From NCBI GenBank assembly GCA_965215195.1, contig CBDCDC010000002.1, positions 160,001 through 224,000 of the forward strand: a DNA stretch of 64,000 nt, read 5' to 3'. Position numbers and translations under genes: made by a program. Each line of letters starts with the position of its first letter. Position 1 is the stretch's first letter. The DNA is from Candidatus Latescibacterota bacterium. Lineage in GTDB: Bacteria; Latescibacterota; UBA2968; UBA8231. The notes beneath the pieces were generated by a model that did no database searches, was not told the origin of the DNA, and was given only the letters and a program-made list of their open reading frames with translations. Positions 27,618 through 45,637 of the stretch are shown one piece after another.

Positions 27618-27626
27618 GAGGTTCAC

Positions 27627-29471: not shown

Positions 29472-30625
29472 AACTTTTTCTTTCACCCAATGATACCTTC
29501 TTTTTTCGCGATGGGAGGCCGTTTACAAAAGGCGAACAGACGGAAGGGCATTCAATTTTTCCACCGCTTCCCTCGACGGTCCTCGGTGCGTTAAGGACTG
29601 CATACATCGCCGAGTTTGGCAACTTGCCGCTTTTCTATTCAGGAGGGATGCAAAAAACGATTGGCACGCCGGCATCACTATGCAATGCGATTCGACTGCG
29701 CGGTGTTTTTTTGGCGAACAATCGAGGCGATCAGTTGGAGATGTTTTTCCCTGTGCCGCGTGACCTGATATACAAGAAGGAGGATAAAAAGCAGAATGAC
29801 AATATCGCACTCCATTTGCTGACACCAGAGGCCAAAAATTTCACATCGAATGGGACAATCAACAACGTACTTGCATGGTCGGCTCCCGATTCCATTGATT
29901 TGGATGCAGATGGCTTGTTACGCATGGGAGCTATCGGACGATACCTGCAAGGAAACGATAGGAACCTGCTACTTACAGATAGGGCAACACTTGTTGAGCG
30001 AGAATCCAAGGTCGGCATCGCCCGAAGTCGAGATACTTTGTCATCCGAGGAGCACATGTTGTATCGTATTGACATGTCCAGATTCAAAAACCGCGATGGA
30101 AATTACGGTTTCGTCGTGGACTACGAATGCTCCAAAAATTTACCACAAAAAGGACTTTTGAAATTAGGTGGTGAAGGCAAAAGCTTTGTCTATCGGGGCA
30201 TCGACCTTAACGTTGAGTCGCTGTCTAGCCATCTTGGGGCGGTCAAAAGCACTATGCAATCAACAGGCAAGTTCAAGCTATATTTCGCAACACCGACCAT
30301 ATTTCAGAAAGGATGGTTGCCTTCATGGTTGGATAGGTTGGACGGAGGTACGCCTTCGGGCGAATATCCAATGGCGAGTAGTTCGCCAATTTCGCTCAAA
30401 TTGATCACTGCTGAGGTTGGTAAACCTGTTACCATTGGTGGATGGGATATGGCAAAAGGCGAGGCAAAACCGACCTATCGTGCTGTGCCCGCTGGCAGTG
30501 TTTACTATTTTGAATTGATGAATAAAAACCGAATTGATGATTTAATCGCCGCTTTCCACTATCAAAACATCAGCGACGAGCGTTCCGAAGAAGGGTTCGG
30601 ACTTGCCCTTCTCGGCGTCGCATAG
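29468..30625 (+). CDS. cmr3: Type III-B Cmr3
   Basis: DTFFFRDGRPF, FPPLPSTVLGALRT, LGGEGK, IGGWD, AVPAGSVYYF, EGFG. Confidence 0.95.
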   Translation: MKLFLSPNDTFFFRDGRPFTKGEQTEGHSIFPPLPSTVLGALRTAYIAEFGNLPLFYSGGMQKTIGTPASLCNAIRLRGVFLANNRGDQLEMFFPVPRDLIYKKEDKKQNDNIALHLLTPEAKNFTSNGTINNVLAWSAPDSIDLDADGLLRMGAIGRYLQGNDRNLLLTDRATLVERESKVGIARSRDTLSSEEHMLYRIDMSRFKNRDGNYGFVVDYECSKNLPQKGLLKLGGEGKSFVYRGIDLNVESLSSHLGAVKSTMQSTGKFKLYFATPTIFQKGWLPSWLDRLDGGTPSGEYPMASSSPISLKLITAEVGKPVTIGGWDMAKGEAKPTYRAVPAGSVYYFELMNKNRIDDLIAAFHYQNISDERSEEGFGLALLGVA

Positions 30626-30636
30626 GGAGGAAAATA

Positions 30637-31920
30637 ATGAAGACACTTGTAACGCCCGTTGGCACATCGCTGTTTACGAACTATCTCGATAAGAACTCGA
30701 ATGATGAGACCTCAAAATCTTATTATGACACAATCAAAAAACGCCCCGCTTCGGAGTGGGGCGATTATGAGAGTGAAATTAACGATCTGAAGAGGGTTAG
30801 CCTTAGCTTTATCGGCATGTCTGGAGTACAGGCTTCAGCCGAACTTCAGAGCATCGCTAAAATTCGATGCGAACTCAACGAGGAACTCAAAGTTCGCCTG
30901 CTTGCCTCGGGTACGATTGCGTCGCGATTGGCGGCGGAGATTTTGGCTGACAATACTTTGGCTGACAATACAGTGACCCCGGTTTTGGGAAGTGGTGTAC
31001 GTGTCGAATTTGATTCAGAAAAAGATGTAATCAAAGGTTTACAGGTTGAAGATCCCAAAGCCTTTTCAAATGAAGGCATGACCAACCTGATTCAAAAGAT
31101 TGACCAAGAGGCTTCTGGATACTGGCCGAAACTTGCTATCAATATCACTGGAGGGTTCAAAGCTACCTTGCCATATCTGACGATTTTGGCACAACTCAAG
31201 CACATTCCGCTTTACTACAACTTTGAGGACACTGACTCACTCATCAAAATTCCGCAAGCACCATTGGTTATTGATTGGGGCTTGATTGAACGGTATTCCG
31301 ACATCCTTATGCAAATTGATAAGGGTGTAGAAGGCAATTGGCCGAAATTTAAAAAAAGACACTACCAAGCTGTTCAAAATTTGGAGGCATTCATTGAAGT
31401 TGATGACAAGGATGCACTTCTGTCACCGATTGGCACAATTTTCTGGGAGGAGTATCAAAATTACTTCGTCGTCGAATTGCCAGGTGGAAGTTATTACGGC
31501 TATAATTCCACTGACCGTCGGTCGATTGATGGAGCCATTGAAGAGCTTTATAGACGGTTACGCGCTGTTCTGTCAGACACTTGCCTGCAAGACTGCGATG
31601 GAAATCTTATACCTGATAAGTGTTACGAAAAAATTCGTAATTTGGGACACAATGATGACTTGAATCACGGTAGGCAGATTCCCAATCCGACGGAAAGTCA
31701 GGACCGGGAAATTTTCATTTTCAAATCAACAAATGATGTTCATATACGATTGCTGTATACCTTCAAGGTTAATAGTAAAAAAATTACTCGGCTCAAGATA
31801 TTCGACCTCCTTTGTCGAGATTTCGATCATGAGAGTTATATTGACGATTGGAAAACAAAGTTCGGTGAAGAAAGATTTCCTGAAATCAACTTTGTCACAC
31901 GTACACTTGAAATTCCTTAG
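30637..31920 (+). CDS. CARF (APE2256-like) protein with a putative C-terminal RelE-like nuclease, Cami1-type effector
   Basis: VGTSLFTNY, SAELQS, INITGGFKATLPYL and YYNFE are APE2256-type CARF motifs. The C-terminal IFIFKS..HIRLLY..DHESY suggests a RelE-like fold (inferred). Confidence 0.8.
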   Translation: MKTLVTPVGTSLFTNYLDKNSNDETSKSYYDTIKKRPASEWGDYESEINDLKRVSLSFIGMSGVQASAELQSIAKIRCELNEELKVRLLASGTIASRLAAEILADNTLADNTVTPVLGSGVRVEFDSEKDVIKGLQVEDPKAFSNEGMTNLIQKIDQEASGYWPKLAINITGGFKATLPYLTILAQLKHIPLYYNFEDTDSLIKIPQAPLVIDWGLIERYSDILMQIDKGVEGNWPKFKKRHYQAVQNLEAFIEVDDKDALLSPIGTIFWEEYQNYFVVELPGGSYYGYNSTDRRSIDGAIEELYRRLRAVLSDTCLQDCDGNLIPDKCYEKIRNLGHNDDLNHGRQIPNPTESQDREIFIFKSTNDVHIRLLYTFKVNSKKITRLKIFDLLCRDFDHESYIDDWKTKFGEERFPEINFVTRTLEIP

Positions 31921-31935
31921 AAAGGAGAAACCCAA

Positions 31936-32928
31936 ATGTTCAAACAAGCTAAACCCTTCTTCCTCATCGTCGAAACCCCACTCCACGCCGGAAGCGGTAG
32001 TGACCTCGGCATTGTTGACCTGCCCATCCAGCGCGAGACGCACACGGATTACCCGAAAATCGAAGCGTCCGGGTTGAAGGGGAGTATCCGTGAAATTTTC
32101 GATGCTCAAAACAAGGATGCTCAAGCTATCAAGCTTGCATTCAAGCTTGCATTCGGCCCTGAGCAAGGCGATCTGCACGCGGGTGCCTTGGGGTTTACCG
32201 ATGCACGTCTCTTGCTTTTCCCGGTCAAGTCGGTCAAAGGTGTGTTTGCATGGGTGACGTGCCCAGCAGTTTTGGAGCGTTTCAAATATGACCTCTCCAT
32301 TTGCCAACCGAGCATTACGTTTGTTGACGATCTCCCTAGCCGCAATACGGTGCCGACCGAGAGCGGACTCATTGTGAAGGACGAGGGAAATGCCAAGAAA
32401 ATCGTGTTGGAAGAATACACGTTCACTGTCAATTCCGACAAAGAATGTGATGCTGTCGCAAAGTGGATTGCCAACAGAGTCCTTCCGCCAGATCTATGCT
32501 ATAACTATTGGCATGAGAAGGTGAAACGAATCCTCGTCGTGTTGAGCGATGATGATTTTCGCGATTTCGTGACGCTCTCAACGGAGGTCATCGCCCGAAC
32601 CAAAATCGACAGTGAAACCGGCACCGTTCAATCGGGTGCGCTGTGGTACGAGGAATACTTACCTACGGATTCGATTCTTTACTCGCTTGCATTGACGACA
32701 CCGCTGTTCTTAAAAGTTGATGGGAATGATGATGCACAAAAGCAAAAAGATGAGAAGGCAAAAAAAGGCATCTTCTATGCTGGCCAAGGGGTGGACAAAA
32801 ACCACGAGGAAGCCAAGAAGGTGATGGAATTCTTTGCGGACGGATTGCCGAATATCATCCAAATCGGCGGCAATGCAACCATTGGCAAGGGATTGGTTCG
32901 GACACACGTTTATCAACATGGGGGGTAA
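31936..32928 (+). CDS. cmr4: Type III-B Cmr4
   Basis: TPLHAGSG, VDLPIQRE (catalytic Asp), SGLKGSIR, DARLLLFPV, LWYEEYLP, QIGGNATIGKG. Confidence 0.97.
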   Translation: MFKQAKPFFLIVETPLHAGSGSDLGIVDLPIQRETHTDYPKIEASGLKGSIREIFDAQNKDAQAIKLAFKLAFGPEQGDLHAGALGFTDARLLLFPVKSVKGVFAWVTCPAVLERFKYDLSICQPSITFVDDLPSRNTVPTESGLIVKDEGNAKKIVLEEYTFTVNSDKECDAVAKWIANRVLPPDLCYNYWHEKVKRILVVLSDDDFRDFVTLSTEVIARTKIDSETGTVQSGALWYEEYLPTDSILYSLALTTPLFLKVDGNDDAQKQKDEKAKKGIFYAGQGVDKNHEEAKKVMEFFADGLPNIIQIGGNATIGKGLVRTHVYQHGG

Positions 32929-32929
32929 A

Positions 32930-33340
32930 ATGATGCCACAAAATCAGACAACACTTAAGGGAATTGAACAGGGGCGGGCCAAGTATGCTTTCTGCGTTGT
33001 CAATGACGTCAGCCAGATCGAATCTGATGACTTAAAAAAGAAGTATAAAACTGCTGCGAAGAAGATTCCTGTTCTAATAAAAACCAACGGGCTTGGGCAA
33101 TCCCTAGCATTCATTAAGAAAAGGAATGATGGTTACGACAAGCTGTACGAGCAGATTGGGAACTGGATCCAAACTGAGGATGCCAAGCAATTGGTTCCGT
33201 CGGGCGAACTTGTCGAAGAGGTTATCCAACTTCAATCGCCTGTCTATCGGCAAGTCACTATCGAAACGCTCGCGCTACTCAATTGGATTCGCCGATTTGT
33301 GGATGGACTCATGAAAGATGTGGAGGCAGACAATGACTAA
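32930..33340 (+). CDS. cmr5: Type III-B small subunit Cmr5
   Basis: [35 protein letters not shown]. Confidence 0.93.
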
Positions 33341-34400
33341 CTACCATCCATCCGATACGGAGCAACTGATTCGCTCATGTAACCACCGGATTGACAACTT
33401 TGCTCTACGCTACCGACATTTTTTGCGGATTGATGCCCCAAGAGGCAATGACCTGAAATACAAAATCAACTTTCAGTGTTCCGGTCAGAAGCTTGAGAAA
33501 TCGTCTCAAGAATGTGTCAAGCATCTGAGAGAACGGCAACGCCAGCAACTCCAGCAGTTTGCTATGCGCGGCATTGAACTTTACTGCGTTGATGCAACGG
33601 TTGATTGGCGGCTGATTGTTGGTCTCGGTAGCGAGCATATTCAGGAGACAAACATGACGCTCCATCACATCTACGGCATTCCGTACATTCCCGGAAGTGC
33701 TGTGAAGGGCGTGTTGCGCCACTGGTGGTTGCATGAGGATTTTGACAATGACGAAAACAAAGCCCTGAAAAATAAAAGTTTTCTCGCTCTCTTTGGCAGC
33801 CAAAAACAGCGCGGGAAAGTGCAATTCATTGACGCCTATCCTGATGAAGTCCGTTTTGCAACGGATATCATGAATCCGCACTATCCCGACTATTACAGTG
33901 GCAGCAAACCACCAACAGATTCTCAAAATCCAGTGCCTATCAATTTTTTGACCGTCGAGCAGACCACCTTTCGATTCGCTTTCTTGGCAAAGGATCAAGA
34001 ACTTCTCGATAAACTCAAGGCGCGATTTGAAGATGCCTTAGAAATGAAAGGCATTGGAGCGAAAACAGCGGTTGGTTATGGGTATTTCCGCGATTTTAAA
34101 GACCAGACTGCCAACATAACAGACCGTGAAGCCGATATGCCCGCTCGGCCTTTGAATGCGACCAAAAGCACTATATCAATCACAGCAGACCGCGAAGCCC
34201 GTGAAGTCGGAACTGTAAAATGGTTCAACGCTGCCAGAGGATTCGGTTTTATTGAGCAAGAAGGTGGCGAAGACGTTTTTGTCCATTATTCCGCGATTCA
34301 AGCCAAGGGCTATAAATCTTTGGCAGAGGGTGACTGTGTTGAATTTGACATTACCGAGGGGCCTAAGGGACTCCAAGCTTCAAATGTCGTGAAGCGATAA
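33333..34400 (+). CDS. cmr6: Cmr6 fused to a C-terminal cold-shock domain
   Basis: [27 protein letters not shown] and [11 protein letters not shown], then [34 protein letters not shown] (RNP1/RNP2). Confidence 0.95.
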
Positions 34401-34587: not shown

Positions 34588-36471
34588 ATGCAAGAAGTAT
34601 TGCGCCAAGCGCGACAGCACATTGACGCGAGTGAATTCGACCGGGCCGAGAGCCTGTGTGCCGATGTCTTGGTGGCCGATCCGGTCTGTGTGCCGGCACA
34701 CCAACTGATGGCGCGGGTGTGGCTGGGACGGAAGCAACCCGACAAAGTGCGCGACCGCCTCGGGTATCGCGACCAGTTGCCCCACGACGAACACTATGTC
34801 GAGTGGGGCCTGATCGCCGAGGAGATGGAAGACTTGGAGACCGCCGGCCAGCTCTATGAAGGGCTGCTGCAGCGGGAGCCGCAAAACGCCGTGGCCCTGT
34901 ACCGGCTGGGCTTGCTGTGCCTCGAACGCGGCGAGCGGGACCGGGCCGTGGGCCTGTTGCAGCGCACCTTGCGGGCGAGTCCAGAGTACGCTCCGGCCGC
35001 GTTTGAGCTGGCCCAGTGCTATGCCGAAGACGAGTTGTGGGGGCTGGCGGCCGATGCGTACGAGCGGGGCTTGGAGCGCGACCCGTCCCATGAGGAGGCC
35101 CGCACCGCCCTGCAAGTGGTGGAGGCGCGGATGCGGGAACTGGCCGAGTTGCCCAGCAGCGAGGTGCCGGCCGGGGAGGGCCCCACGCGGCGGATGCGGG
35201 TATTGTTCGCTGGGCGGGAAAATGTCCACGCCCGGCAGTGGATAGACGAAAATGGCCGGGTTGGGTACAGTCCGGTCCATGAGCCGCTCGCCGAGCATCT
35301 GTTAAGCCTGCATTTGCAAGGGACCGCGACCTTGGGCGTGTACCCGGTGCGGGCCGACCAGACGGTGCTGTTTGGGGCCCTCGATATTGATGTGCGCAAA
35401 AACGCCCTCACCGCGGGGCAGCCGCTCGCCGACCGACTGCGGGAAACCGTGCAGGCCGATGCCCGGCGGCTCGCCCGGCAGTTCGATGCGTTGCACCTGC
35501 CGGTCTATGTGGAGGAGAGCGGGTACAAGGGCGTACATCTGTGGATCTTTCTTGCGGAGCCGGTGCCGGCTGCGGAGGTGAAGCGCTTTTTGGAGGCGGT
35601 CGTCCAGCGGGTCGGCCCCCCTGCGCCCGAGCTCCAGTGGGAGGTATTCCCCAAGCAAGAGCAGGTCGCCGAGGACCAGTTGGGCAATCTGATCAAGTTG
35701 CCGTTGGGCATTCATCTCAAGACTGGGCGGCGGTGTTTGTTCACGGACTTGGAAGGGCAGGAGTACAGCGATCAGGAAGGGTTCCTCCAGCGCATTCAGC
35801 AGGTTGAGCGCAAGGATTTCGAGCGGGCCGTGTCTCGCTTGGTGGCCCGGCCCGAGCAAGGCGGCGCGGCCGGGTCGGCTCAAGCCCTGCGCGAGGCTTT
35901 TCCCGAATACGAGGCCCTGTTCAAGGGCTGCCCGGTCTTGGTCGCCCTTATGGAAAAGGCCGTGGTCACCCATCACCTCACCCACGACGAACGCTTGGTC
36001 CTCAAGTGCGTTTTGGCGCACTTAGGCGACAGGGGGCGTCGGCTGATCCACAGTATTGTCGGGCACTGCCTCGATTACTCTGAGGCGATCACCCAGCAGC
36101 AAATTGAGCGCACCCCGCCCTATCCGGTCAGTTGTCCCAAAATTCGTCAGCGCCTCCCGGAGGTCACTTCAACGGTCAACTGCGCGTGTGTGTTCGAGTT
36201 GCCCGAAGGGGGGTATCCTTCGCCGCTGTTGCATCTCGAGCCAGACTTTACCAAGGGTCGGTCTCACAATGCCGATCGGCACGGGCCGATGGTGGACAAG
36301 TACGTGAATTTGCGGCGGGATTATCAGCGGCTGAGCCGCGAGTTGGCCCACCTCGAAGACGATCTGCGCTACGCGCTTGACTCGAGCGGCCAAGACGAGT
36401 TGCGGGCCGGCGGGTGGATTCTGCGCCGCGATGGGGAGGGTCGCTTAAAGGTGGAGATCGACTTGGGGTGA
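34588..36471 (+). CDS. CRISPR-associated primase-polymerase (CAPP): TPR + AEP primase-polymerase + Cys-rich C-terminal domain
   Basis: TPR repeats; AEP motifs LDID (DxD), ESGYKGVHLW (SxH), EVFPKQ and GNLIKLPLG; PriL-like Cys pattern GCPV..HCLDY..SCPKI..NCAC; stop overlaps the cas1 start. Confidence 0.92.
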   Translation: MQEVLRQARQHIDASEFDRAESLCADVLVADPVCVPAHQLMARVWLGRKQPDKVRDRLGYRDQLPHDEHYVEWGLIAEEMEDLETAGQLYEGLLQREPQNAVALYRLGLLCLERGERDRAVGLLQRTLRASPEYAPAAFELAQCYAEDELWGLAADAYERGLERDPSHEEARTALQVVEARMRELAELPSSEVPAGEGPTRRMRVLFAGRENVHARQWIDENGRVGYSPVHEPLAEHLLSLHLQGTATLGVYPVRADQTVLFGALDIDVRKNALTAGQPLADRLRETVQADARRLARQFDALHLPVYVEESGYKGVHLWIFLAEPVPAAEVKRFLEAVVQRVGPPAPELQWEVFPKQEQVAEDQLGNLIKLPLGIHLKTGRRCLFTDLEGQEYSDQEGFLQRIQQVERKDFERAVSRLVARPEQGGAAGSAQALREAFPEYEALFKGCPVLVALMEKAVVTHHLTHDERLVLKCVLAHLGDRGRRLIHSIVGHCLDYSEAITQQQIERTPPYPVSCPKIRQRLPEVTSTVNCACVFELPEGGYPSPLLHLEPDFTKGRSHNADRHGPMVDKYVNLRRDYQRLSRELAHLEDDLRYALDSSGQDELRAGGWILRRDGEGRLKVEIDLG

Positions 36472-37466
36472 TTCTCTATGTGACGGATCAGGGCGCGGGG
36501 GTCTATTGCCGCGGCGAGCGTTTGCAGGTGCGGCGGCGCAAGGAAGTATTGGCCGAGGTGCATCTGTACGATCTGGAACAGGTGGTGCTCATGGGCCGGA
36601 TCGCGCTTTCGGCCGCGGCCATGGGCACGTTGCTCGAGCGGGGCGTGGATACAGTCTTGCTGAGCGTGCATGGTCGATACCGGGGCCGGCTGGTCGGACC
36701 CGAACGGCGCAATGTGCTGCTGCGGCAACAGCAGTTCAAGCGCTACGAAGACGAGCCGTTTCGGCTGGGGGTGGGGCGGGCCGTGGTTGAGGGCAAGCTA
36801 CGCAATATGCGGACCCTGCTCATGCGCTTGGCCCGGCGGCGCAGGGTGGATGTGGGGGCGGTGGCCCACTTGCTGCGTCGGTCGATTCAGCAGGTCGGGC
36901 AGGCGACTAACGCGGAGTCGCTACGCGGTTTGGAGGGGGCCGGTAGCGCGGCTTATTTTGGGGTGCTTGGGGACTTTTTTCCCGAGGAACTCCCGTTCAA
37001 GGGACGCAACCGACGGCCGCCCAAGGATCCGGCCAATGCGCTGCTCAGCTTTGGGTATGCTCTGTTAGGCAACAGTGTGGAGGGCGCGGTCTATTTGGCC
37101 GGGCTCGATCCGTACTTGGGCTTTCTGCATGTGGTGGACTATGGGCGTCCTTCGCTCTCGCTGGATTTGATGGAGGAATTTCGGCCGGTGTTGGTTGATG
37201 CGCTGGTCTTGGATTTGGTCAACCACCATCGGGTGCAGAGCGAGGATTTTGAAGCGCGGGACGGAGGGGTATTTTTGCAGGGGGCGGGCCGCAAGCGGCT
37301 GATTGAGGCGTACCAACGCCGTCTCGAAGACCGGGTGGCCTACCCAGTAGGGGCCGAGCGAGTGGAACGGATTTCTTATCGGCGTTGCCTCGAATATCAG
37401 GTGCGCCGATTGGCCCGGGTGATCTTGGGCGAGGAAGACCACTATCGGGCCTTTCTGGTGCGTTGA
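36468..37466 (+). CDS. cas1: CRISPR-associated endonuclease Cas1 (no RT or Cas4 fusion)
   Basis: LYVTDQG, RGLEG..AAYF, RNRRPPKDPANALLSFGY, GLDPYLGFLH, LDLMEEFRP. Confidence 0.97.
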   Translation: MILYVTDQGAGVYCRGERLQVRRRKEVLAEVHLYDLEQVVLMGRIALSAAAMGTLLERGVDTVLLSVHGRYRGRLVGPERRNVLLRQQQFKRYEDEPFRLGVGRAVVEGKLRNMRTLLMRLARRRRVDVGAVAHLLRRSIQQVGQATNAESLRGLEGAGSAAYFGVLGDFFPEELPFKGRNRRPPKDPANALLSFGYALLGNSVEGAVYLAGLDPYLGFLHVVDYGRPSLSLDLMEEFRPVLVDALVLDLVNHHRVQSEDFEARDGGVFLQGAGRKRLIEAYQRRLEDRVAYPVGAERVERISYRRCLEYQVRRLARVILGEEDHYRAFLVR

Positions 37467-37467
37467 G

Positions 37468-37743
37468 ATGTTTGTGACGGTTTGCTTTGATATCAGCTCG
37501 GACCGAACCCGTCGGCAGGCGACTCGGGTGCTGGAGGCTTATGGGACGCGGGTGCAGAAGAGTGTGTTCGAATGTCGCATTGGTGAGCGGCAGTTTGTCG
37601 AGTTGCGGCAACGCATGAGTCAGATCAATCTGGGGGCAGGTGATCTGGTGCGCTACTATACGCTGTGCCGGGCTTGTCAGGCCAAAGTCGAATTTACCGG
37701 CGGTTTGCCGCCGCAGGAGGAAAAAGGGCATATCGTCGTTTGA
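37468..37743 (+). CDS. cas2: CRISPR-associated endonuclease Cas2
   Basis: VCFDISSDR, YGTRVQKSVFEC, DLVRYY. Confidence 0.97.
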   Translation: MFVTVCFDISSDRTRRQATRVLEAYGTRVQKSVFECRIGERQFVELRQRMSQINLGAGDLVRYYTLCRACQAKVEFTGGLPPQEEKGHIVV

Positions 37744-38004
37744 AAGGGGGAATTTGCGACTCAGTTTAAGAAAGGGTTGTCAAAATAGCACAATGGGGTT
37801 ATATTTTTTTGTGCCGTAAGGAATTGGGTGCGTTACTTGATCCGATTCTGGGTCGCAAATGGGTAACGGCCTGTCCTAGAATTAGTTGGCTCAGATGCTC
37901 TTGCCACAGTCAGAATGGTTTTGATAGGCGGGTGCCTGTCAAAATGGCCTGAGTCGCATAAGGGGGCTAGACGGACTGTGGCCCAATAAGTTAGAAAGGA
38001 GGCA
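37744..38004 (+). promoter_or_regulatory. CRISPR leader
   Basis: AT-richer non-coding 261 bp between cas2 and the first repeat. Confidence 0.8.
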
Positions 38005-40354
38005 ATCAGAACACTGGACCCGATTTGTAGGGGATTGAAACGAGCCGATATCCGGTGTGGCGGCAAATTCAATACATAAATCAGAACACTGGACCCGATT
38101 TGTAGGGGATTGAAACATGCCGTTTTCGACCTCGCCGCCGGTCCACGTGTACGTATCAGAACACTGGACCCGATTTGTAGGGGATTGAAACACACCCAAG
38201 AGGTGTCCACCCGCACCAGGACCCGAGAGATCAGAACACTGGACCCGATTTGTAGGGGATTGAAACTTCTTGTTCCGCATCCTGCCGCGCAGCTTCCTGG
38301 ATATCAGAACACTGGACCCGATTTGTAGGGGATTGAAACTTTGCCGCGACCCGCTCCATGCACTCGTTAAACTCTTATCAGAACACTGGACCCGATTTGT
38401 AGGGGATTGAAACGTAATTAAACGACACGAGGTTGTTGTGAAACACACACATCAGAACACTGGACCCGATTTGTAGGGGATTGAAACCGAGAAAGTCATC
38501 TTCGGGTGGCGAGTACAGTGGCGAAATCAGAACACTGGACCCGATTTGTAGGGGATTGAAACATCTGTAGGCTGACGTCTTCGATCGTGATGGTATCGGG
38601 GTATCAGAACACTGGACCCGATTTGTAGGGGATTGAAACACGGCACCGACCGCTTCCTCGACCTCCGTAACCACCTATCAGAACACTGGACCCGATTTGT
38701 AGGGGATTGAAACTAATGGTCTCGGTCTCAGTCTCGGCCGAAGTCTCGGTATCAGAACACTGGACCCGATTTGTAGGGGATTGAAACTTCTTGCCCACAC
38801 GAATGTGGGGGTTTTGTGCCTCCGATCAGAACACTGGACCCGATTTGTAGGGGATTGAAACCACTTGGGCGGCCCCATGTCCGCAGCCGAGTTGCTCATA
38901 TCAGAACACTGGACCCGATTTGTAGGGGATTGAAACGAAAAGAAGAGGGCGAACGCCTGGGTCTTGTACCCTCCCAATCAGAACACTGGACCCGATTTGT
39001 AGGGGATTGAAACCACGACTTGTCGAGGGGGAAGTCTTCGGGGAGTCTCTCATCAGAACACTGGACCCGATTTGTAGGGGATTGAAACTGGATGGAGTTC
39101 TGCTGGAGAGCGTACTGGAAACCGAAATCAGAACACTGGACCCGATTTGTAGGGGATTGAAACGGGTCAGCGCCCGCCCGATAGGGTTTCTCGAAGAATC
39201 AGAACACTGGACCCGATTTGTAGGGGATTGAAACTGCCCGAGAACTCGCCGGGACCAATCAGAGACGCACATCAGAACACTGGACCCGATTTGTAGGGGA
39301 TTGAAACTTTTTTTCATACGGGGGTTCCTTCGCGTTGGGCGCGGATCAGAACACTGGACCCGATTTGTAGGGGATTGAAACTCAACCCACCTAGCCCGAA
39401 TCCCCCGAATCCCAAAAAAATCAGAACACTGGACCCGATTTGTAGGGGATTGAAACTTTAGAGAGTTGGGTTAGGTGGTTTGCGGCTTCCTCTTATCAGA
39501 ACACTGGACCCGATTTGTAGGGGATTGAAACTTGATGTCATTAACAGTGATCTGGAACATTTTGGCCTATCAGAACACTGGACCCGATTTGTAGGGGATT
39601 GAAACCCGATCGCCGCCCACCTCGTCCGGCGGATTTACCATCTCATCAGAACACTGGACCCGATTTGTAGGGGATTGAAACTTATGTGGGAATGGGGGTG
39701 GAAAAAAAACGACGAGATCAGAACACTGGACCCGATTTGTAGGGGATTGAAACAATGACTGCCTGACGCGACGGAGCGTCTTGATCAGGTATCAGAACAC
39801 TGGACCCGATTTGTAGGGGATTGAAACTTCATCACGATGCTTAAGTGCTCGGGGGCAATTTTCCCATCAGAACACTGGACCCGATTTGTAGGGGATTGAA
39901 ACTCGTCGAATTCGGGACTGAGCCCATTCTCGGTTTGAACGATCAGAACACTGGACCCGATTTGTAGGGGATTGAAACGCTCCTGCAGGGCAATCAGCGC
40001 CCTCTTGGTTCTTGCCATCAGAACACTGGACCCGATTTGTAGGGGATTGAAACACCTGCACGGTGGTCCCGAGTGCGAGCTCGTTTACAAGGATCAGAAC
40101 ACTGGACCCGATTTGTAGGGGATTGAAACACCTCCGAGACCACTTCGTCGGACTCGAGGTTGATATATCAGAACACTGGACCCGATTTGTAGGGGATTGA
40201 AACGCTTAGTGGGGCGACCTAGAAGAGCCGTTCCTCGAGCGATCAGAACACTGGACCCGATTTGTAGGGGATTGAAACCGATCTGGAACATTTGAGTCTC
40301 CTCAATTGTGGCCGCAGATCAGAACACTGGACCCGATTTGTAGGGGATTGAAAC
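38005..40354 (+). CRISPR. CRISPR array: 32 copies of the 37-bp repeat ATCAGAACACTGGACCCGATTTGTAGGGGATTGAAAC and 31 spacers of about 34-40 bp
   Basis: Repeats counted by hand from 38005 to 40318; no variants seen. The 3' ATTGAAAC handle and the leader position give + orientation. Confidence 0.99.
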
Positions 40355-40380
40355 CCCGGAAGGCAGAAAGGAGGAGGCAA

Positions 40381-40482
40381 ATGAAAAAGGTTGTCTGCGC
40401 TGGACCGCCTAGGTCCGGCAGAAGCTATTTGTGCGAGGGATTGAAGCAGGCTATTATAAAAATTACCAAAGACGACCCGTAA
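40381..40482 (+). pseudogene. Truncated N-terminus of a P-loop protein resembling the ATPase-Csx3/Crn3 fusion
   Basis: Strong SD AAGGAGGAGG, then MKKVVCAGPPRSGRSYLCEGLKQAIIKITKDDP*; Walker A-like GPPRSG(R)S. Confidence 0.6.
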
Positions 40483-40529
40483 AAGATTGCTGGCGTTGTG
40501 ACTCGCCAAATACAATCGAGGTTTGCGTA

Positions 40530-42230
40530 GTGCCAATCGCTGAAACAGTATTAAACGGCATCCAAGACAGAGGCCGACGAGCACTGCCCATTGAGAGAAT
40601 TTATCGACACCTCTACAACCCCGACCTATTCCTACGTGCTTATGGGCGCATCTACCGAAAAACAGGGGCGACCACACAAGGCATCACAGAAGAAACCACA
40701 GATGGCATGTCAATGAAGAAAATCAATACCCTCCTAGAGAAATTCCGCTGTGAGCGTTACCAATGGACTCCGGTAAGGCGGATATATATTCCCAAGAAAA
40801 ACGGCGGGCGGCGTCCGCTCGGCATCCCCGTTTGGTCCGATAAACTGGTACAAGAAGTCATGCGATCCATACTGGAAGCCTACTATGAACCCCAGTTTAG
40901 CGATCTGTCCCACGGCTTCCGAGCTAACCGAGGCTGTCACTCTGCACTAAGAGAAATTGCAAAATGGAAAGACATAGACTGGTTTATCGAAGGCGACATC
41001 AAAGAATGTTTTGACAGCATAGACCACGATCTACTACTGTCCATATTGAAAGAGAAAGTCCACGATGATCGATTCATTGTCTTACTCGGCCAGCTTCTCA
41101 AGGTCGGATATGTAGAGTATGGGAGCTACAAATCCACCCTGATCGGCACCCCACAAGGAGGGCCTGTAAGCCCAATCTTTGCCAATGTGTATCTCGACAA
41201 GCTGGATAGGTTTGTCGAAAACACACTCATGCCTCGCTATACAAAAGGTAATTGGAAAACCGCGAGGAACTTGCAAAGAATAATGCGGCAAAGGCCGCTA
41301 TCTAATGCCAAAAATCATATCTTTAGACGACTGCGCTATATCCGATACGCCGACGACTTTCTGATTGGCTTTACCGGGCTAGAGGCAGAAGTAAAAGAAG
41401 TCAAGAGGTGCCTCAAAGGATTTCTCCAAGAAAAGCTGAAATTGGAACTATCAGAGGACAAAACCTTGCTCACGTACGCCCGCACCGAGAAAGCACAATT
41501 CCTCGGATACGAAATCAAAAGAATGACTGAAAATACCAAACACAAAAAAGGCCGAAAGCCGATCAACAACGCGCTGAGTCTCAGCGTTCCAATAAGATTC
41601 ATAAAAGAGCGATGTGAACTCTATATAAAATACGGGCGAATAATGCCTCGTGCCGAACTGATCAACGACAGCGACGCCGACATCACGAGTTTCTTTCAGA
41701 GCCGATATGCCGGTTATGTGCAATACTACATGCTTGCCCACAATGTCCACGCCTTAAACGAAGTGCGATGGGTTATGGAGAAGTCCTTGCTCAAGACGCT
41801 TGCCAAAAAGCATAAAACGAGCGTCAATCAGTTTGAAAAACAGTACAAGACGACCATCCAAACACCCCACGGTCCGCAAAAGTGCTTGGAGATGCAGGTG
41901 GTAAATCGAGAAGGAGAACCACAGATCGCACGCTTTGGCGGCATTCCTCTCAGACGACGACAAGGTAAGACCATTGAGGATCAAGCCCAAAATGATGCTC
42001 CCACGAGCAAAGGGACAGAACTCATCCAACGCCTGCTGGCAAACCTATGCGAATGCTGCGGCTCAGCGGGCAGAGTCGAAGTTCACCACATCCGAAAACT
42101 CGCCGACATCAAAAAGGGGAGGTCGCCAAAACCCAAATGGACGCAAGAAATGATCGCGCACCAGCGAAAAACCTTGATTGTGTGCAAAAAGTGTCATCGC
42201 GCCATCCATTCGGACCAAATCAGCCACTGA
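40530..42230 (+). CDS. Group II intron-type reverse transcriptase/maturase with HNH endonuclease; no flanking intron RNA recognisable
   Basis: RPLGIP..DKLVQE, SHGFR, EGDIKECFDSIDH, GTPQGG, YADD and FLGY; maturase X region; CECCG..EVHH..CKKCHRAIH; likely GTG start 40530 after GAGG. Confidence 0.95.
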   Translation: MPIAETVLNGIQDRGRRALPIERIYRHLYNPDLFLRAYGRIYRKTGATTQGITEETTDGMSMKKINTLLEKFRCERYQWTPVRRIYIPKKNGGRRPLGIPVWSDKLVQEVMRSILEAYYEPQFSDLSHGFRANRGCHSALREIAKWKDIDWFIEGDIKECFDSIDHDLLLSILKEKVHDDRFIVLLGQLLKVGYVEYGSYKSTLIGTPQGGPVSPIFANVYLDKLDRFVENTLMPRYTKGNWKTARNLQRIMRQRPLSNAKNHIFRRLRYIRYADDFLIGFTGLEAEVKEVKRCLKGFLQEKLKLELSEDKTLLTYARTEKAQFLGYEIKRMTENTKHKKGRKPINNALSLSVPIRFIKERCELYIKYGRIMPRAELINDSDADITSFFQSRYAGYVQYYMLAHNVHALNEVRWVMEKSLLKTLAKKHKTSVNQFEKQYKTTIQTPHGPQKCLEMQVVNREGEPQIARFGGIPLRRRQGKTIEDQAQNDAPTSKGTELIQRLLANLCECCGSAGRVEVHHIRKLADIKKGRSPKPKWTQEMIAHQRKTLIVCKKCHRAIHSDQISH

Positions 42231-42282
42231 TGTTAGGCTCTGGCGGTTTGGCCTCTTTATCAAAATCTCAAAGGAGCAACTC

Positions 42283-43665
42283 ATGGAAACAGCCACACAC
42301 CAGCCAGCGAATGAGCCGCACACGATCTTGTTATGCACCGTCGGCGGTGCTCATCAGCCGATTCTTGAGGCAATTGACTCAACGTCACCTAGCTATGTCT
42401 GCTTCTTCTGCACGGACAAAGATCCCGTGACCCAAAAGCCAGGTACTATCGGTCATGTGACCGGTAGTGGCTATGTCATCAAGGCTGACTACAACGAAAC
42501 TAAGCCTACGTTGCCGAATATCCCCACCCAAGCGCGTCTTAATAACGGCGAGTTTGAAACGCAGATAGTCCCGGCGGACGACCTTGATGGGGCTTATTTA
42601 GTCATGCGTAACGCCATCATCAACTTGGCTGCGCGATTTTCGGGCCCCCGATTTATCGCCGACTATACGGGGGGCACCAAGACGATGACGGCGGCACTTG
42701 TATGCGCTGCCTTACAGGGGAGGGATGATGTCGAGCTTCAACTTGTTACGGGTACCCGTTCCACTCCCACCATCGTGGACGATGGAACCGAACAGGCGAT
42801 GACAGCGAGCGTGGCTCGTCTGCGCCTTGAACGGGCGATGGCACCCTATCTTGGGGCTTGGTCGCGGTATGCGTATTACGAAGCCGCGGAAGGGCTGAGA
42901 AGCATCCGAATTGTCAGCAACGACCGCGATCGGCAGGGGTTCCTCTTTGTAAGCTCACTAAGCCGAGCCCTAGCTCTTTGGGATAACTTCAATCATGCCG
43001 ACGCATTAAAGTTGATGCGGCACTATGGAGGGCAAGTCGCTCAATGCTATCCGAAAATGTTGCCTTGGTTGGACTTACTCGCTAAGGAGAAGGGGAACGA
43101 ACCCGCACTGCTGTTTGACCTCTGGTTAAATGCCCAGCGGTGTGCAGCCCAAGGCCGGTTCGACGATGCGATTGCGCGATGGTACCGCCTGCTGGAGTGG
43201 ACAGCTCAATGGCAACTGCAAACGAAGCTCAAGGCCAATACCGCGGATTTTGCATCTGATTTGCTGCCATCGGGTGTTGACGCGGCTCCAAGTAGCGATA
43301 AAAAAATCAAGCTCGGACTTTGGCAGGCATGGCAAGTCGTGAAGCACCATGAACGCCTGTCGGGACCCGCTCAAGAATTCATCAAGAACCACGGGGGGAA
43401 GGTCTTCGATTTACTTAAGGTACGCAACAATTCGATACTGGCTCACGGTTTTCGTCCAGTGAGTGACTCGGACTGGCAGCAGGTGTATTCGTGGACGCAG
43501 GACAAATTCCTGCCTGCCCGTTCTGCGTCAGTTAGCCGCCAAAGCAAACATAAAAAAAGAGCCGGAGCAACTCCCGACCACACCTCCAGAATTCTTCACC
43601 TGAACCGCGTCCGACAGTTACTGGCTCGCTTGATCCGTTTGTCTCAGTACACGACAGCAACCTAA
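42283..43665 (+). CDS. CARF-HEPN effector (TIGR02710-like, Csm6/Csx1-related); last ~50 codons are out of frame
   Basis: CTVGGAHQP, ADYTGGTKTMTAAL, GRFDDAIARWYRLLE, HEPN RNNSILAHGF; 4-bp duplication at 43509-43516. Confidence 0.9.
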   Translation: METATHQPANEPHTILLCTVGGAHQPILEAIDSTSPSYVCFFCTDKDPVTQKPGTIGHVTGSGYVIKADYNETKPTLPNIPTQARLNNGEFETQIVPADDLDGAYLVMRNAIINLAARFSGPRFIADYTGGTKTMTAALVCAALQGRDDVELQLVTGTRSTPTIVDDGTEQAMTASVARLRLERAMAPYLGAWSRYAYYEAAEGLRSIRIVSNDRDRQGFLFVSSLSRALALWDNFNHADALKLMRHYGGQVAQCYPKMLPWLDLLAKEKGNEPALLFDLWLNAQRCAAQGRFDDAIARWYRLLEWTAQWQLQTKLKANTADFASDLLPSGVDAAPSSDKKIKLGLWQAWQVVKHHERLSGPAQEFIKNHGGKVFDLLKVRNNSILAHGFRPVSDSDWQQVYSWTQDKFLPARSASVSRQSKHKKRAGATPDHTSRILHLNRVRQLLARLIRLSQYTTAT

Positions 43666-43829
43666 GTTGTGGCACGACGCTGATGGGCTTGGTTGTGCAA
43701 CGGCTGGTTGAAGAAGCCCGAAAGCTGGATCGCCCGGTGCGACGTTTTGCTCTCATTGATCGCCGTTCCCAAGACGAGCAGGACAGCGATCCGTTTGTGC
43801 AGGGCGATTGCCACTGGCTTGACAACTGA
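43659..43829 (+). pseudogene. 3' remnant of a CARF-like gene (copy 2)
   Basis: NLSCGTTLMGLVVQRLVEEARKLDRPVRRFALIDRRSQDEQDSDPFVQGDCHWLDN*; NLSCGTT resembles the CARF N-x-T-G-G-T motif. Confidence 0.6.
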
Positions 43830-44340
43830 ATGAGACTGAGGCTATTGATGCCTGCCACTATTCTTTGCTCATCTGCCAGACCCTCCAACGCCTCACGAGC
43901 AACCCCCAGTACAAGCTCAAGCGATACCACATCACGACCCAGTAACACCTGCATTTTTTGCACTTTTGCACCAGTTCGGCCCCTCGCCCCGCTCCTCGCC
44001 CGGCAGTGCCTCTTGCGTAAGTAACGCATTTACAATGCCTTAACGGCCCCTCAACCAAGTCTGGCATTGGATTTGCTATCTATACGTAGGTCGATGGTCC
44101 CTGCCGTGCAGCCGGGAGAGTTTCACGGCCTAATAGGGCAAGCAATTTGGGCACTTGATGCTTTGCAGCTCCCAATTGAAACGGTGAGAGTGCAAATTAT
44201 GCACTTTGAGCACCCCAAGGCCGGTGCTTCTAACTCGCGCAATTTGAGTGCCTTGCAGGCCGTCGGCTCGAAATTGTTGCAACGGAGGGCAAAAATTTGC
44301 GCCTGCTAACCCCATTTCCAAGGAGGTTTCGCGATCCAAG

Positions 44341-44885
44341 AGGTGAAGTGTTGACTCATTGCTAGGGGATTGAAGCTGAGGATGAGGATGGTACGTTGGT
44401 TGTTTTTCGCTACGCGGCGGTAAATTAGCCCAATCAACCTAATAACCGGGAGAACAAGATGGAAGATTATTCGGCGGTAGTCTGCAAAGCCGTAGTGGAT
44501 CATATTTCAATACGCTACGGATCAGCCGGATCAGCCAGATGTTCGAGAAGGTGGGTAGAAACCGAACCCGGCTTGATGCACAGGATTTCTAGAAAATGGC
44601 TGGCGGACCACAGGCGTTGGGTGGAGTTTCGCCACGCGCCCAAGCGGCAACAGGCTGCCGAGGATTCCGAGCGTCGCCGGCGGGCTGTATATGCTCGCTA
44701 TGCCTTGCTCGAGGAATGGGAATTTGTCGATAGTAAACGGCCGGGTAAGGCCCGGTCTTGGTTTGCTCCTATTTGAAGAGTTGCCCCGATTGCTAGGGGA
44801 TTGAAACTGTGGGAGCATGATGGGAGCACGCGGAGCATGAGCCGAGTTGCTTAGCGCGTTGCCCCGTTTTCCAGAGGATCGAAAC
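44341..44885 (+). CRISPR. Degenerate mini-array of a second repeat type: three repeats at 44341-44376, 44771-44807 and 44849-44885
   Basis: Best copy ATTTGAAGAGTTGCCCCGATTGCTAGGGGATTGAAAC (29/37 identical to the main repeat); flanking copies diverged; gaps of 394 bp and 41 bp. Confidence 0.8.
44459..44776 (+). CDS. Hypothetical 105-aa protein lying between two CRISPR-like repeats
   Basis: GGGAGA RBS before ATG; stop codon lies inside the repeat at 44771; no recognisable family. Confidence 0.4.
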   Translation: MEDYSAVVCKAVVDHISIRYGSAGSARCSRRWVETEPGLMHRISRKWLADHRRWVEFRHAPKRQQAAEDSERRRRAVYARYALLEEWEFVDSKRPGKARSWFAPI

Positions 44886-44917
44886 CACCCCAGCGCCACA
44901 GCCCAGCGATTCCGCCC

Positions 44918-45637
44918 ATGCGCCTCTGCGACTTTCCAATCCTGACCTTCGACACCTATGGAACCCTGATCGACTGGGAGACGGGAATCTGGGATGCGCT
45001 GCAACCGCTCTGCTCGCGTCTGGCCGACCCGCCGACCCGCGAGGCGGCCCTCGCAGCATTCGCACGGGCGGAATCGGCCGGCCAAGCGGCCACCCCGGAC
45101 CTGCTCTATGCCGACCTCTTGGCAGCCACCCACCGCACACTGGCCCGGACTTGGGGCCGCGAACCCGAGGATGCCGAGAGCATCCGCTTCGGCCAGTCGG
45201 TCGGGGACTGGCCGGCCTTTGCCGACGCGGCCGAATCGCTCGCCTACCTGCAACGCCACCACCGGCTGATCACCCTCACCAATTGCGACCGCGCCAGCTA
45301 CCAGGGCAGTGCCGCCCGCCTCGGCGATCCTTGGGACGCGATTCTCACGGCCGAGGAGATCGGCTCGTACAAACCGTCGCTGGCCAACTTTGAATTCCTG
45401 CTCGCCCGGGTGGCGGCCGACTTTGGCCATGCTCCCGGGAGCATCCTGCACGTCGCCCAGAGCCTCTTTCACGACCACGTGCCGGCCAAGGCGCTCGGAC
45501 TGACGACGGCATGGATTGACCGGCGTGCGGGGCGCAAAGGCGGCGCGACAGTACCGCCGCAGAAGGCAGTGGAACCCGACTTCTGTTTCAAAAGCATGGC
45601 GGAGCTGGTCGCCCAGCATCGCGCCGAACGGGCCTGA
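44918..45637 (+). CDS. HAD-family hydrolase (haloacid dehalogenase type II-like)
   Basis: LTFDTYGTLIDWE, LTNCD, SYKPS, LHVAQSLFHDHVPA. Confidence 0.92.
   Translation: MRLCDFPILTFDTYGTLIDWETGIWDALQPLCSRLADPPTREAALAAFARAESAGQAATPDLLYADLLAATHRTLARTWGREPEDAESIRFGQSVGDWPAFADAAESLAYLQRHHRLITLTNCDRASYQGSAARLGDPWDAILTAEEIGSYKPSLANFEFLLARVAADFGHAPGSILHVAQSLFHDHVPAKALGLTTAWIDRRAGRKGGATVPPQKAVEPDFCFKSMAELVAQHRAERA

Follow-up and report, generated by a model that had tools for sequence, protein, structure and literature searches.

Why does the gene of a group II intron-type protein lie, with no intron ribozyme around it, directly behind a type III CRISPR array? The question is raised by a stretch of 64,000 nucleotides (nt) from Candidatus Latescibacterota bacterium (GenBank assembly GCA_965215195.1, contig CBDCDC010000002.1, positions 160,001 to 224,000 of the forward strand), which we call the window and in whose numbering positions are given. 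CRISPR-linked reverse transcriptases (RTs) are thought to descend from the RTs of group II introns. A first-pass annotation, made from the sequence alone, had taken the gene for an intact intron protein stripped of its ribozyme and at an early stage of domestication into a CRISPR operon. We read it, with a probability of about 0.6, as a domesticated, selected, ribozyme-free intron protein in a cassette of CAPP (CRISPR-associated primase-polymerase), Cas1, Cas2 and an array, where it probably aids the uptake of RNA-derived spacers. We are highly confident of the domestication into a CRISPR cassette itself; the role in spacer uptake, based on analogy and a thin spacer signal, is slightly favoured.

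Position and start of the RT gene

40530-42230, + strand: group II intron-type protein gene, ribozyme-less (566 aa; GTG start; GAGG box at 40518-40521)
40431-42230, + strand: parent open reading frame (ORF) of the RT in the ORF listing (599 aa from a GTG; 0 internal stops)
40427-40445, + strand: possible decayed repeat remnant in the gap between array and RT (local alignment score 22, reached by 14 of 500 shuffles; weak)

The gene had been placed at 40483-42282, with both ends 52 nt too far to the right; the ORF runs from 40431 to 42230. Within it, GTG 40530 is favoured as the start because it is aligned with the Met start (M-R-x-A-E) of nine intron-borne relatives, and the GAGG box lies 8 nt 5′ of it. 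The longer start at GTG 40431, which sits within the weak repeat-like remnant, was ruled out by the alignment of the N-terminus with the intron-borne relatives. About 174-175 nt separate the end of the last full repeat (40355) from GTG 40530, and 52 nt separate the RT stop codon, which ends at 42230, from the ATG of the next gene at 42283; the first-pass distances of 175 and 52 bp are correct for this start. Its neighbours were also named correctly, with an array of 32 repeats upstream and a CARF-HEPN gene (TIGR02710, 155.8 bits) downstream. A consensus scan, which is weak evidence, found no promoter- or terminator-like site on the + strand from the array to the RT.

Absence of intron RNA

A survey of 168 genomes of the phylum yielded a close RT of the same clade in six, at 67-100% identity; the clade loci are the window, L020, L021, L026, L027 and L028. 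Three features mark a mobile group II intron, namely an intron-encoded protein with RT and maturase domains, in which DNA-binding and HNH domains are optional, a catalytic RNA (domains I-III in front, V/VI behind) and mobility, seen as multiple copies or as sites that differ between relatives, and only the protein is found here. The room beside the RT amounts to 174 nt upstream and 52 nt downstream. No Rfam family reached its gathering score anywhere in the 64-kb window, none of the 27 Rfam matches at E ≤ 10 in 38500-44500 belonged to a group II family, and the five other clade loci gave no match to an Rfam group II intron. With RF00029, domain V was found directly behind the ORF in 19 of 21 loci outside the clade (5 of 5 and 14 of 16); the two misses, L044 and L045, hold N-terminal fragments only. 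From 15 of those non-clade introns we built a lineage-specific model of domains V-VI, termed R1, which scored 50.7-95.5 bits on six introns kept out of its building. R1 found nothing in the window, L020, L026, L027 or L028, and with filters off its top score in 37700-45000 of the window was 9.5 bits. A match in L021 (18.6 bits, E 0.13) lies within the CAPP gene and was taken as chance.

By direct reading, homology to intron DNA begins 15-20 nt 5′ of the start codon and ends at the stop codon, and the start region (gaggtttgcg..start) is near-identical to that of L015. Nine of nine intron-borne relatives carry two intron motifs, GGGAAAGCC..GAAGGGGAACAGGT on the upstream side and GAGCCG..GAAAC..CGGTTC on the downstream side, and all six clade loci lack both. 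Rfam, R1 and direct reading all being without group II RNA, the earlier observation that domains V and VI are missing holds; the Infernal/Rfam check of the flanks, which the first-pass annotation had suggested, detected no intron structure, the result that would have overturned its proposal.

A sister species in the genus of the window (genome G003) carries, as L015, an entire intron whose class is related, and domain V scores 68.4 bits behind its ORF.

The window's own genome (6.13 Mb, 2 contigs) holds a single copy of the RT, and in all six genomes the RT occupies the same place behind the array. Whole-genome searches with RF00029, in which the best 150 of about 300-400 candidates per genome were scored, gave no match in the window's own genome, G021 or G031 (best 150 of 300-353 candidates), and one, two and one matches elsewhere in the genomes G141, G108 and G111, respectively. 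The RT lineage is no longer mobile; it is a single-copy, vertically kept part of a type III adaptation cassette.

Architecture and relatives of the RT protein

Pfam profiles match the RT domain (RVT_1, E 2.2e-30), the maturase (Intron_maturas2, 7.3e-11) and an AI2M-like HNH domain, of which 49 of 49 profile positions are covered (4.1e-14). The domain order is RT with an N-terminal extension, maturase/thumb, DNA-binding and HNH endonuclease. The earlier description of an intact ORF with RT motifs (YADD), maturase region and Cys/His ligands of the HNH domain is borne out by these profile matches and by the lack of internal stops. YADD (273-276), the motif 3 aspartate, the CxxC pairs 507/510 and 552/555 and the histidines H519, H520, H556 and H560 are invariant in 22 of 22 aligned sequences.

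With TIGR04416 (group II RT/maturase), the window RT reaches 270 bits at a cut-off of 300. We rejected this score as a sign of divergence or decay because four verified intron-borne relatives and two further homologues also stay below the cut-off, reaching only 276-292 bits. The best solved relative is LtrA of Ll.LtrB (PDB 5g2x; E 2.5e-99, 336.5 bits), followed by IIC-type RTs (132-140 bits), the Cas6-RT-Cas1 protein (7kft, 51.8 bits) and the RT of a CART-CAPP fusion, CART being a CRISPR-associated RT (8bgj, 42.7 bits). Because the last two scores compare with 336.5 bits to LtrA, the window RT falls outside the lineages of 7kft and 8bgj; this comparison with the 15 described CRISPR-RT clades covers their solved members. 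Structure prediction from the 22-row alignment gave a mean pLDDT (predicted local distance difference test score) of 43.8, too poor for use.

Homologues (best 8000 candidates scored) fall into tiers, with 19 clusters at 64-99% identity, a drop to 58%, and a second tier that is a very large family of about 595-aa intron proteins. The RT phylogeny that had been suggested at first pass was run as a quick IQ-TREE search (LG+C20; support by the Shimodaira-Hasegawa-like approximate likelihood ratio test, SH-aLRT, only) on 76 rows: six CRISPR-verified RTs, 19 near hits, 11 intron-verified ORFs, 14 distant outgroup rows and 26 of 101 second-tier hits (every fourth, 540-660 aa). Duplicates of L002 (L003, L004, L011), broken ORFs (L006, L008, L038), L022 and L035 were omitted. 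All 25 near and CRISPR rows group together in a single clade (SH-aLRT 100, stem 0.38 changes/site), which is nested among intron proteins and has CRISPR-verified members in all four subclades; 19 of its rows are metagenomic relatives. The rooting is approximate because the outgroup does not fall on one side of a branch (two rows are misplaced). A JGI (Joint Genome Institute) metagenome scan and a genome-contig scan returned relatives of at most 63% identity and no clade member.

Set against 37 intron-type relatives, the 25 clade sequences have lost 17 aa behind residue 244, in the interval from RT motif 4 to motif 5, and 1 aa elsewhere, and they carry two fixed substitutions (151 positions are equally conserved in the two groups). 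Judged from sequence, the clade represents an independent recruitment from an endonuclease-bearing, LtrA-like intron lineage.

Conservation of the locus and selection on the RT

The RTs of the six genomes are 63-94% identical to one another, and the ORF is intact in each. A co-oriented array lies directly 5′ of the RT in all six, with distances from the last repeat of 175, 276, 422, 771, 69 and about 37 nt, and CAPP-Cas1-Cas2 lies 5′ of the array in all five loci with enough flank. The orthologues in L020, L021, L027 and L028 are 82-89% (CAPP), 83-86% (Cas1) and 80-89% (Cas2) identical to those of the window. L026 begins inside the array at a contig end, and in its genome CAPP stands at the terminus of a different contig, which closes with the same repeat. 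The region downstream of the RT varies, with a CARF-HEPN gene at three loci (window, L026, L028) and III-D-like effector genes at the other three (L020, L021, L027).

Some of the gaps between array and RT have content of their own. The 771-nt gap of L026 (1121-1891) holds a 130-aa ORF and then a decayed repeat, about 200 nt before the RT. The gap in L021 (about 11373-11794, minus strand) contains a small ORF fragment, which by eye we take to be a PHP-type phosphoesterase N-terminus. In L028, the RT starts about 37 nt after a slightly altered last repeat.

The ratio of nonsynonymous to synonymous substitution rates (dN/dS; Nei-Gojobori method) of the RT was 0.11-0.19 in 15 of 15 pairs, three of which have dS values of 0.22-0.53; over all RT pairs, dS ranges from 0.2 to more than 2. 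The cassette partners gave 0.08-0.115 (Cas1), 0.09-0.117 (CAPP) and 0.08-0.137 (Cas2). For the parts of the RT protein, dN/dS was 0.08-0.15 in the RT domain and 0.08-0.26 in the HNH domain (6 of 7 pairs; the seventh has a saturated dS). Purifying selection acts on every domain of the RT protein. Two marks of a CART are found, namely linkage to cas1-cas2 and an array, and an intact RT active site under selection. The first-pass annotation had named a one-off relic evolving neutrally as an outcome fatal to its proposal; six array-RT loci out of six and the dN/dS range of 0.11-0.19 dispose of it. Its description of the domestication as early-stage stands for the architecture, which is unfused and keeps the four intron-protein domains apart from the 17-aa deletion and two fixed substitutions. 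It does not stand for age, given the divergence down to 63% identity, saturated dS, two families and the stem of 0.38 changes/site.

Spacers of RT-linked and RT-less arrays

We searched the window's own genome with the spacers of the window array and counted perfect matches outside the array. Three of 31 spacers are perfect copies of host sequence:

38488-38525, + strand: spacer 7, 100% over 38 nt to the sense strand of 16S ribosomal RNA (rRNA), at about positions 67-104
38862-38899, + strand: spacer 12, 100% over 38 nt to the coding strand, in frame in the + strand ORF L055 1331-2272, presumably transketolase-like as judged by eye
39164-39197, + strand: spacer 16, 100% over 34 nt to the coding strand, in frame in the + strand ORF L057 1263-3032 (at least 590 aa)

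The 16S target of spacer 7 scores 1595.6 bits with the small subunit rRNA model on the same strand and is the only 16S copy in the genome; in contigs from other sequencing runs, the spacer 7 sequence continues into 16S. If spacers were drawn uniformly from DNA, one or more of the three would hit the 1557-nt 16S gene with a probability of about 7.6e-4. CRISPR RNAs (crRNAs) from spacers 7, 12 and 16 would be identical, not complementary, to host RNA and therefore harmless.

Arrays B and C of the same genome, which are RT-less, hold 0 of 69 and 0 of 42 perfect self-copies; there is one 37-of-39 match, of spacer B43, with no orientation to a credible gene. The window array differs from arrays B and C combined with a Fisher p of 0.0096 for perfect matches and 0.033 when the imperfect match is included. 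Among the other RT-linked arrays, that of G108 has one perfect self-copy in two spacers, in sense orientation, and that of G021 has 0 of 54 and one 36-of-39 match, also sense. The 16S spacer and the within-genome excess of host-derived spacers are suggestive of RNA capture.

Array B, with 69 spacers, is part of another type III-B set that has Cas1-Cas2 genes of its own, and array C, with 42 spacers, accompanies a Cas1-Cas2 pair. On contig C2 the two loci are found at about 938.6-954.5 kb and at 4548.4-4553.0 kb. Both lack CAPP and an RT, and their repeats differ from that of the window, yet also end ATTGAAAC.

Anatomy of the CRISPR locus

23783-25354: AAA-ATPase-like protein with a PD-(D/E)XK nuclease domain, directly upstream of cas6
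25394-26344, + strand: Cas6 endoribonuclease, first gene of the locus (Pfam CRISPR_Cas6, E 8.8e-20)
26721-34400, + strand: type III-B effectors Cmr1, Cas10/Cmr2, Cmr3, CARF protein, Cmr4 and Cmr6-CSD (CSD, cold-shock domain; Pfam/NCBIfam above cut-off for Cmr1, Cmr2, Cmr3, Cmr4 and Cmr6)
30637-31920, + strand: CARF protein of 427 aa between cmr3 and cmr4 (Cas_APE2256; weak ring-nuclease match)
33318-34400, + strand: Cmr6 (RAMP) with a C-terminal CSD (TIGR01898, 167 bits; CSD E 2.7e-27, residues 298-359)
34588-36471, + strand: CAPP primase-polymerase, TPR type A1 (NF040561 PrimPol_Msp, 360.9 bits, cut-off 200; AEP and TPR Pfam domains)
36468-37466, + strand: Cas1 integrase (Pfam Cas_Cas1, E 1.6e-95; GTG start, 4-nt overlap with the CAPP stop)
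37468-37743, + strand: Cas2, 91 aa (assigned by position and by 80-89% identical orthologues in L020, L021, L027 and L028)
37744-38004, + strand: leader, between Cas2 and the array
37777-37805, + strand: promoter-like site in the leader (10 of 12 hexamer positions; the region has 2 sites against 5.7 expected, weak)
38005-40355, + strand: CRISPR array (32 identical 37-nt repeats ending ATTGAAAC; 31 spacers of 34-40 nt)
42283-43665, + strand: CARF-HEPN (Csx1/Csm6-type) gene (TIGR02710, 155.8 bits, cut-off 83.9; Csm6 HEPN E 2.8e-20)
44357-44376, 44788-44807 and 44866-44885, + strand: three decayed repeat remnants (16, 18 and 15 of 20 positions of the 3′ half of the repeat)

The Cas1 start was read from the sequence and is backed by 332-aa orthologues, and Cas2 weakly matches the neighbours of the genome's two other Cas1 genes. 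With its TPR-AEP gene in an operon with cas1-cas2 of a type III system, the window has the arrangement of a CAPP-TPR type A1 module. From the repeat end ATTGAAAC, read in the light of type III crRNA handles, the array is presumably transcribed on the + strand towards the RT. Two CARF genes are present in the locus, the one at 30637-31920 and the CARF-HEPN gene behind the RT. The fusion of an RNA-binding domain to a type III backbone subunit (Cmr6-CSD) looks unusual; a CSD-like stretch also occurs behind the CARF-HEPN gene in L028 (13083-13328).

The RT-CARF block at the end of the array

CAPP orthologues of at least 82% identity occur in 10 of the 168 genomes, six with the RT and four without. 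Three of the latter (G032, G029, G025) have CAPP-Cas1 with arrays nearby; the fourth, G143, is a congener of the window's genome and has CAPP-Cas1-Cas2 with an array of about 246 repeats, which borders immediately on the next chromosomal gene, by eye haloacid-dehalogenase-like. The long array of G143 spans L092 5050-19001 and L105 1-4680 behind CAPP-Cas1-Cas2, and the genome has a further array, with a repeat resembling the first, at about 592.8-601.2 kb.

The window counterpart of this chromosomal gene starts at 44918 and is preceded by the three decayed repeats, the last two of which are 78 nt apart and abut it. In shuffled sequence, the mean number of such sites was 0.02 (ungapped scan). 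At the last decayed repeat, the junction at which GAAAC passes into CACC..CCCATGCGCCT is the end junction of the RT-less array of G143. Because decayed repeats lie downstream of it, the RT-CARF block has array sequence at each end; either it was inserted into an array, or recombination between repeats removed it from G143. Run contigs from another study hold the leader, one shared spacer and the RT-CARF block (3345 nt, 21 differences, 4 gaps), and therefore the content of the array is strain-variable and the RT is constant at its end.

Proposed mechanism

In the mechanism that we infer, the protein would be an active RT in partnership with Cas1 and CAPP, it would be co-transcribed with the array, and spacers would originate from RNA. 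The ribozyme has gone from either side of the gene, and just the Shine-Dalgarno box and the ORF are left. The RT may then copy RNA into DNA, or prime on RNA ligated to the array, so that Cas1-Cas2 could store RNA-derived spacers, as happens with RT-Cas1 fusions; CAPP may supply priming or second-strand synthesis, and the HNH domain may nick DNA or trim it, the part that it plays during target-primed reverse transcription. Transcription of the array probably extends into the gene, which would form the 3′ tail of that transcript: gene and array are co-oriented, the distance from the last repeat is 37-175 nt in three loci, and the gap in the window shows no promoter- or terminator-like site.

A bolder version, which we put forward tentatively and regard as rather doubtful, makes the cassette a living intermediate between retrohoming and CRISPR adaptation, with the whole intron toolkit in use. 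Cas1-Cas2 would join RNA, or an RNA-primed product of CAPP, to the leader-side repeat; the HNH domain would nick the opposite strand of that repeat, the RT would extend the nick by target-primed reverse transcription, and CAPP would make the second strand. With the RT translated from the tail of the precursor crRNA, array transcription would set the capacity for RNA recording, of which the 16S rRNA spacer would have been left as a natural trace.

Evidence against a role in spacer uptake and alternative explanations

Several observations weigh against the reading of the RT as a spacer-uptake factor. The protein is almost unchanged from its intron-borne relatives and therefore has no feature that points to a new partner. 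The RT is accessory to the cassette because four of the ten CAPP genomes have arrays and lack it. Between subclades, it is 63-72% identical, compared with 79-89% for CAPP, Cas1 and Cas2, and the window CAPP is nearest to that of L021 (89%), which does not hold for the window RT (67%); the two halves of the cassette therefore have partly separate histories. The spacer signal is uneven as well. The RT-linked arrays of G031 (0 of 30), G111 (0 of 17) and G141 (0 of 14) lack self-copies, and the RT-less array of G143 has two perfect ones in its first 183 spacers; when pooled, 4 of 148 spacers of RT-linked arrays and 2 of 294 of RT-less arrays are perfect self-copies (p 0.10). Because both self-copies of G143 are also sense, selection against autoimmunity alone can explain the orientation. 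A search of a phage collection with the spacers gave no match.

A domesticated RT could instead have a job other than spacer uptake, such as repair of a DNA break or gap (as for G2L4), abortive-infection defence through RT and HNH nuclease together or post-integration array repair, with its place behind the array an accident of an old intron landing site. The RT is missing from 4 of 10 CAPP genomes, stands at the trailer end of the array and not beside cas1, has a history partly unlike that of the adaptation genes and is followed by a CARF-HEPN effector gene in three of six loci; moreover, parts of PMC12337344 put domesticated intron-like RTs in repair on record. We nevertheless consider such a job unlikely. 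Array and adaptation genes alone stay constant as neighbours over all six loci, the effectors switch between III-B-like and III-D-like and the CARF-HEPN gene is absent from three loci, and the 16S rRNA spacer and the own-genome excess of host-derived spacers fit RNA capture. Less probable by some distance is an RT whose substrate is the CRISPR transcript. Made from the 3′ tail of the precursor crRNA, it would remain attached to its own 5′ region, a remnant of the site where the intron bound its protein, and would reverse-transcribe crRNA or array RNA; the DNA copies would serve to maintain or duplicate the array or to guide targeting as cDNA. The start region (GAGG..GCG..start), conserved in all six loci, is the only intron DNA kept outside the ORF, the RT of L028 lies about 37 nt behind a slightly altered last repeat, and the stretch from array to RT has no promoter- or terminator-like site on the + strand. 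However, the retained start stretch is also a plain ribosome-binding site, the 276-771-nt gaps in three loci contain other ORFs or hairpins, and we know of no CRISPR RT with such an activity.

Two further explanations appear very improbable. The gene could be a decaying relic of an intron inserted into an array, with no present function; decayed repeats do flank the RT-CARF block, and the array of G143 meets the same downstream gene without it. Against this, the ORF is intact in six of six loci at 63-94% identity with dN/dS of 0.11-0.19 and invariant catalytic residues, the clade is monophyletic with CRISPR-linked members in every subclade, and recent transfers of one active intron are excluded as the source of the ORFs because the ribozymes are absent. 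It is equally hard to credit that the protein is a free-standing maturase or mobility factor for ORF-less group II introns elsewhere in the genome. It does keep all residues typical of intron proteins, as the 151 positions common to both groups indicate, and G141, G108 and G111 have introns elsewhere, but among the best 150 of 300-353 candidates there was no RF00029 match in the window's own genome, G021 or G031, and array linkage is conserved where intron content is not.

Comparison with known systems

Among described proteins, LtrA-type intron proteins share the four-part architecture of the window RT, and its N-terminus and start region are homologous to those of intron-borne relatives. Ll.LtrB is a IIA (mitochondrial-like) intron. 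Unlike these proteins, the window RT is without a ribozyme, single-copy and fixed in a CRISPR cassette, and has the 17-aa deletion. The RT-Cas1 and Cas6-RT-Cas1 fusions (Marinomonas mediterranea, Thiomicrospira; clades 2-13) also have a group II-derived RT, have lost the ribozyme and are linked to type III Cas1-Cas2. In contrast to them, the window RT is unfused, lies behind the array and not beside cas1, keeps the maturase, DNA-binding and HNH domains and is far nearer to intron proteins. For such RTs, passages of Toro et al. 2018 (PMC6013744) describe a route in which an intron enters a CRISPR locus and loses its RNA and the RT co-evolves with Cas1, with four lineages; portions of a later review (PMC8632793) count fifteen CRISPR-RT clades and state that RT-linked type III systems acquire spacers from RNA.

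The Methanosarcina RT beside cas6 (branch 11 of Silas 2017; clade 1/lineage 4 of Toro 2018) likewise represents an independent and more recent recruitment; sections of PMC5513706 and PMC6013744 describe it as recent, independent and still branching among intron RTs. Compared by description only, it is an archaeal RT of class F intron descent, and its locus lacks cas1. The host of the window RT is bacterial, and the RT is LtrA-like with an HNH domain and has CAPP-Cas1-Cas2 present. To our knowledge, class F intron proteins have no endonuclease domain.

CART-CAPP fusions (Caloramator australicus, clade 12) and CAPP-TPR modules (Marinitoga piezophila) resemble the window in combining an RT and a primase-polymerase in one type III adaptation module. 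Cas1 binding has been demonstrated for CAPP-TPR type A1, according to part of PMC8211822, and the RT of CART-CAPP fusions is described in portions of PMC10415136 as a short fingers-palm domain without N-terminal extension, next to an inactive primase-polymerase domain. The window RT and CAPP, in contrast, are separate full-length genes on opposite sides of the array. G2L RTs (G2L4) are also intron-type RTs without intron RNA, and passages of PMC8632793 treat them as domestication intermediates that form their own lineage near CRISPR RTs; the window clade is instead nested inside bona fide intron proteins, in a tree without G2L references.

A full-text literature search found neither a CRISPR-linked RT described as keeping its DNA-binding and HNH domains nor an RT placed at an array's trailer end, although supplementary tables may list members. 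In the text obtained of PMC6013744, PMC5541045 and PMC10415136, 'HNH' occurs 0 times, as does 'endonuclease' in that of PMC5513706.

Significance

Annotation pipelines can be expected to call such genes 'group II intron RT/maturase' and thereby to keep them out of surveys of CRISPR-linked RTs. The described CRISPR-RT lineages known to us are all remodelled, being fused to Cas1, Cas6 or a primase and without an endonuclease. The lineage described here shows a step before that remodelling, in which the protein still cannot be told from an intron protein by family score, the ribozyme is gone and the gene is selected beside a primase-polymerase. It offers a direct test case for the question whether spacer integration inherited the nicking and target-primed steps from retrohoming, and the four related genomes with the same CAPP and no RT provide a natural RT-plus/RT-minus comparison. 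The cassette is also a candidate for a new RNA-recording module of separate, full-length enzymes.

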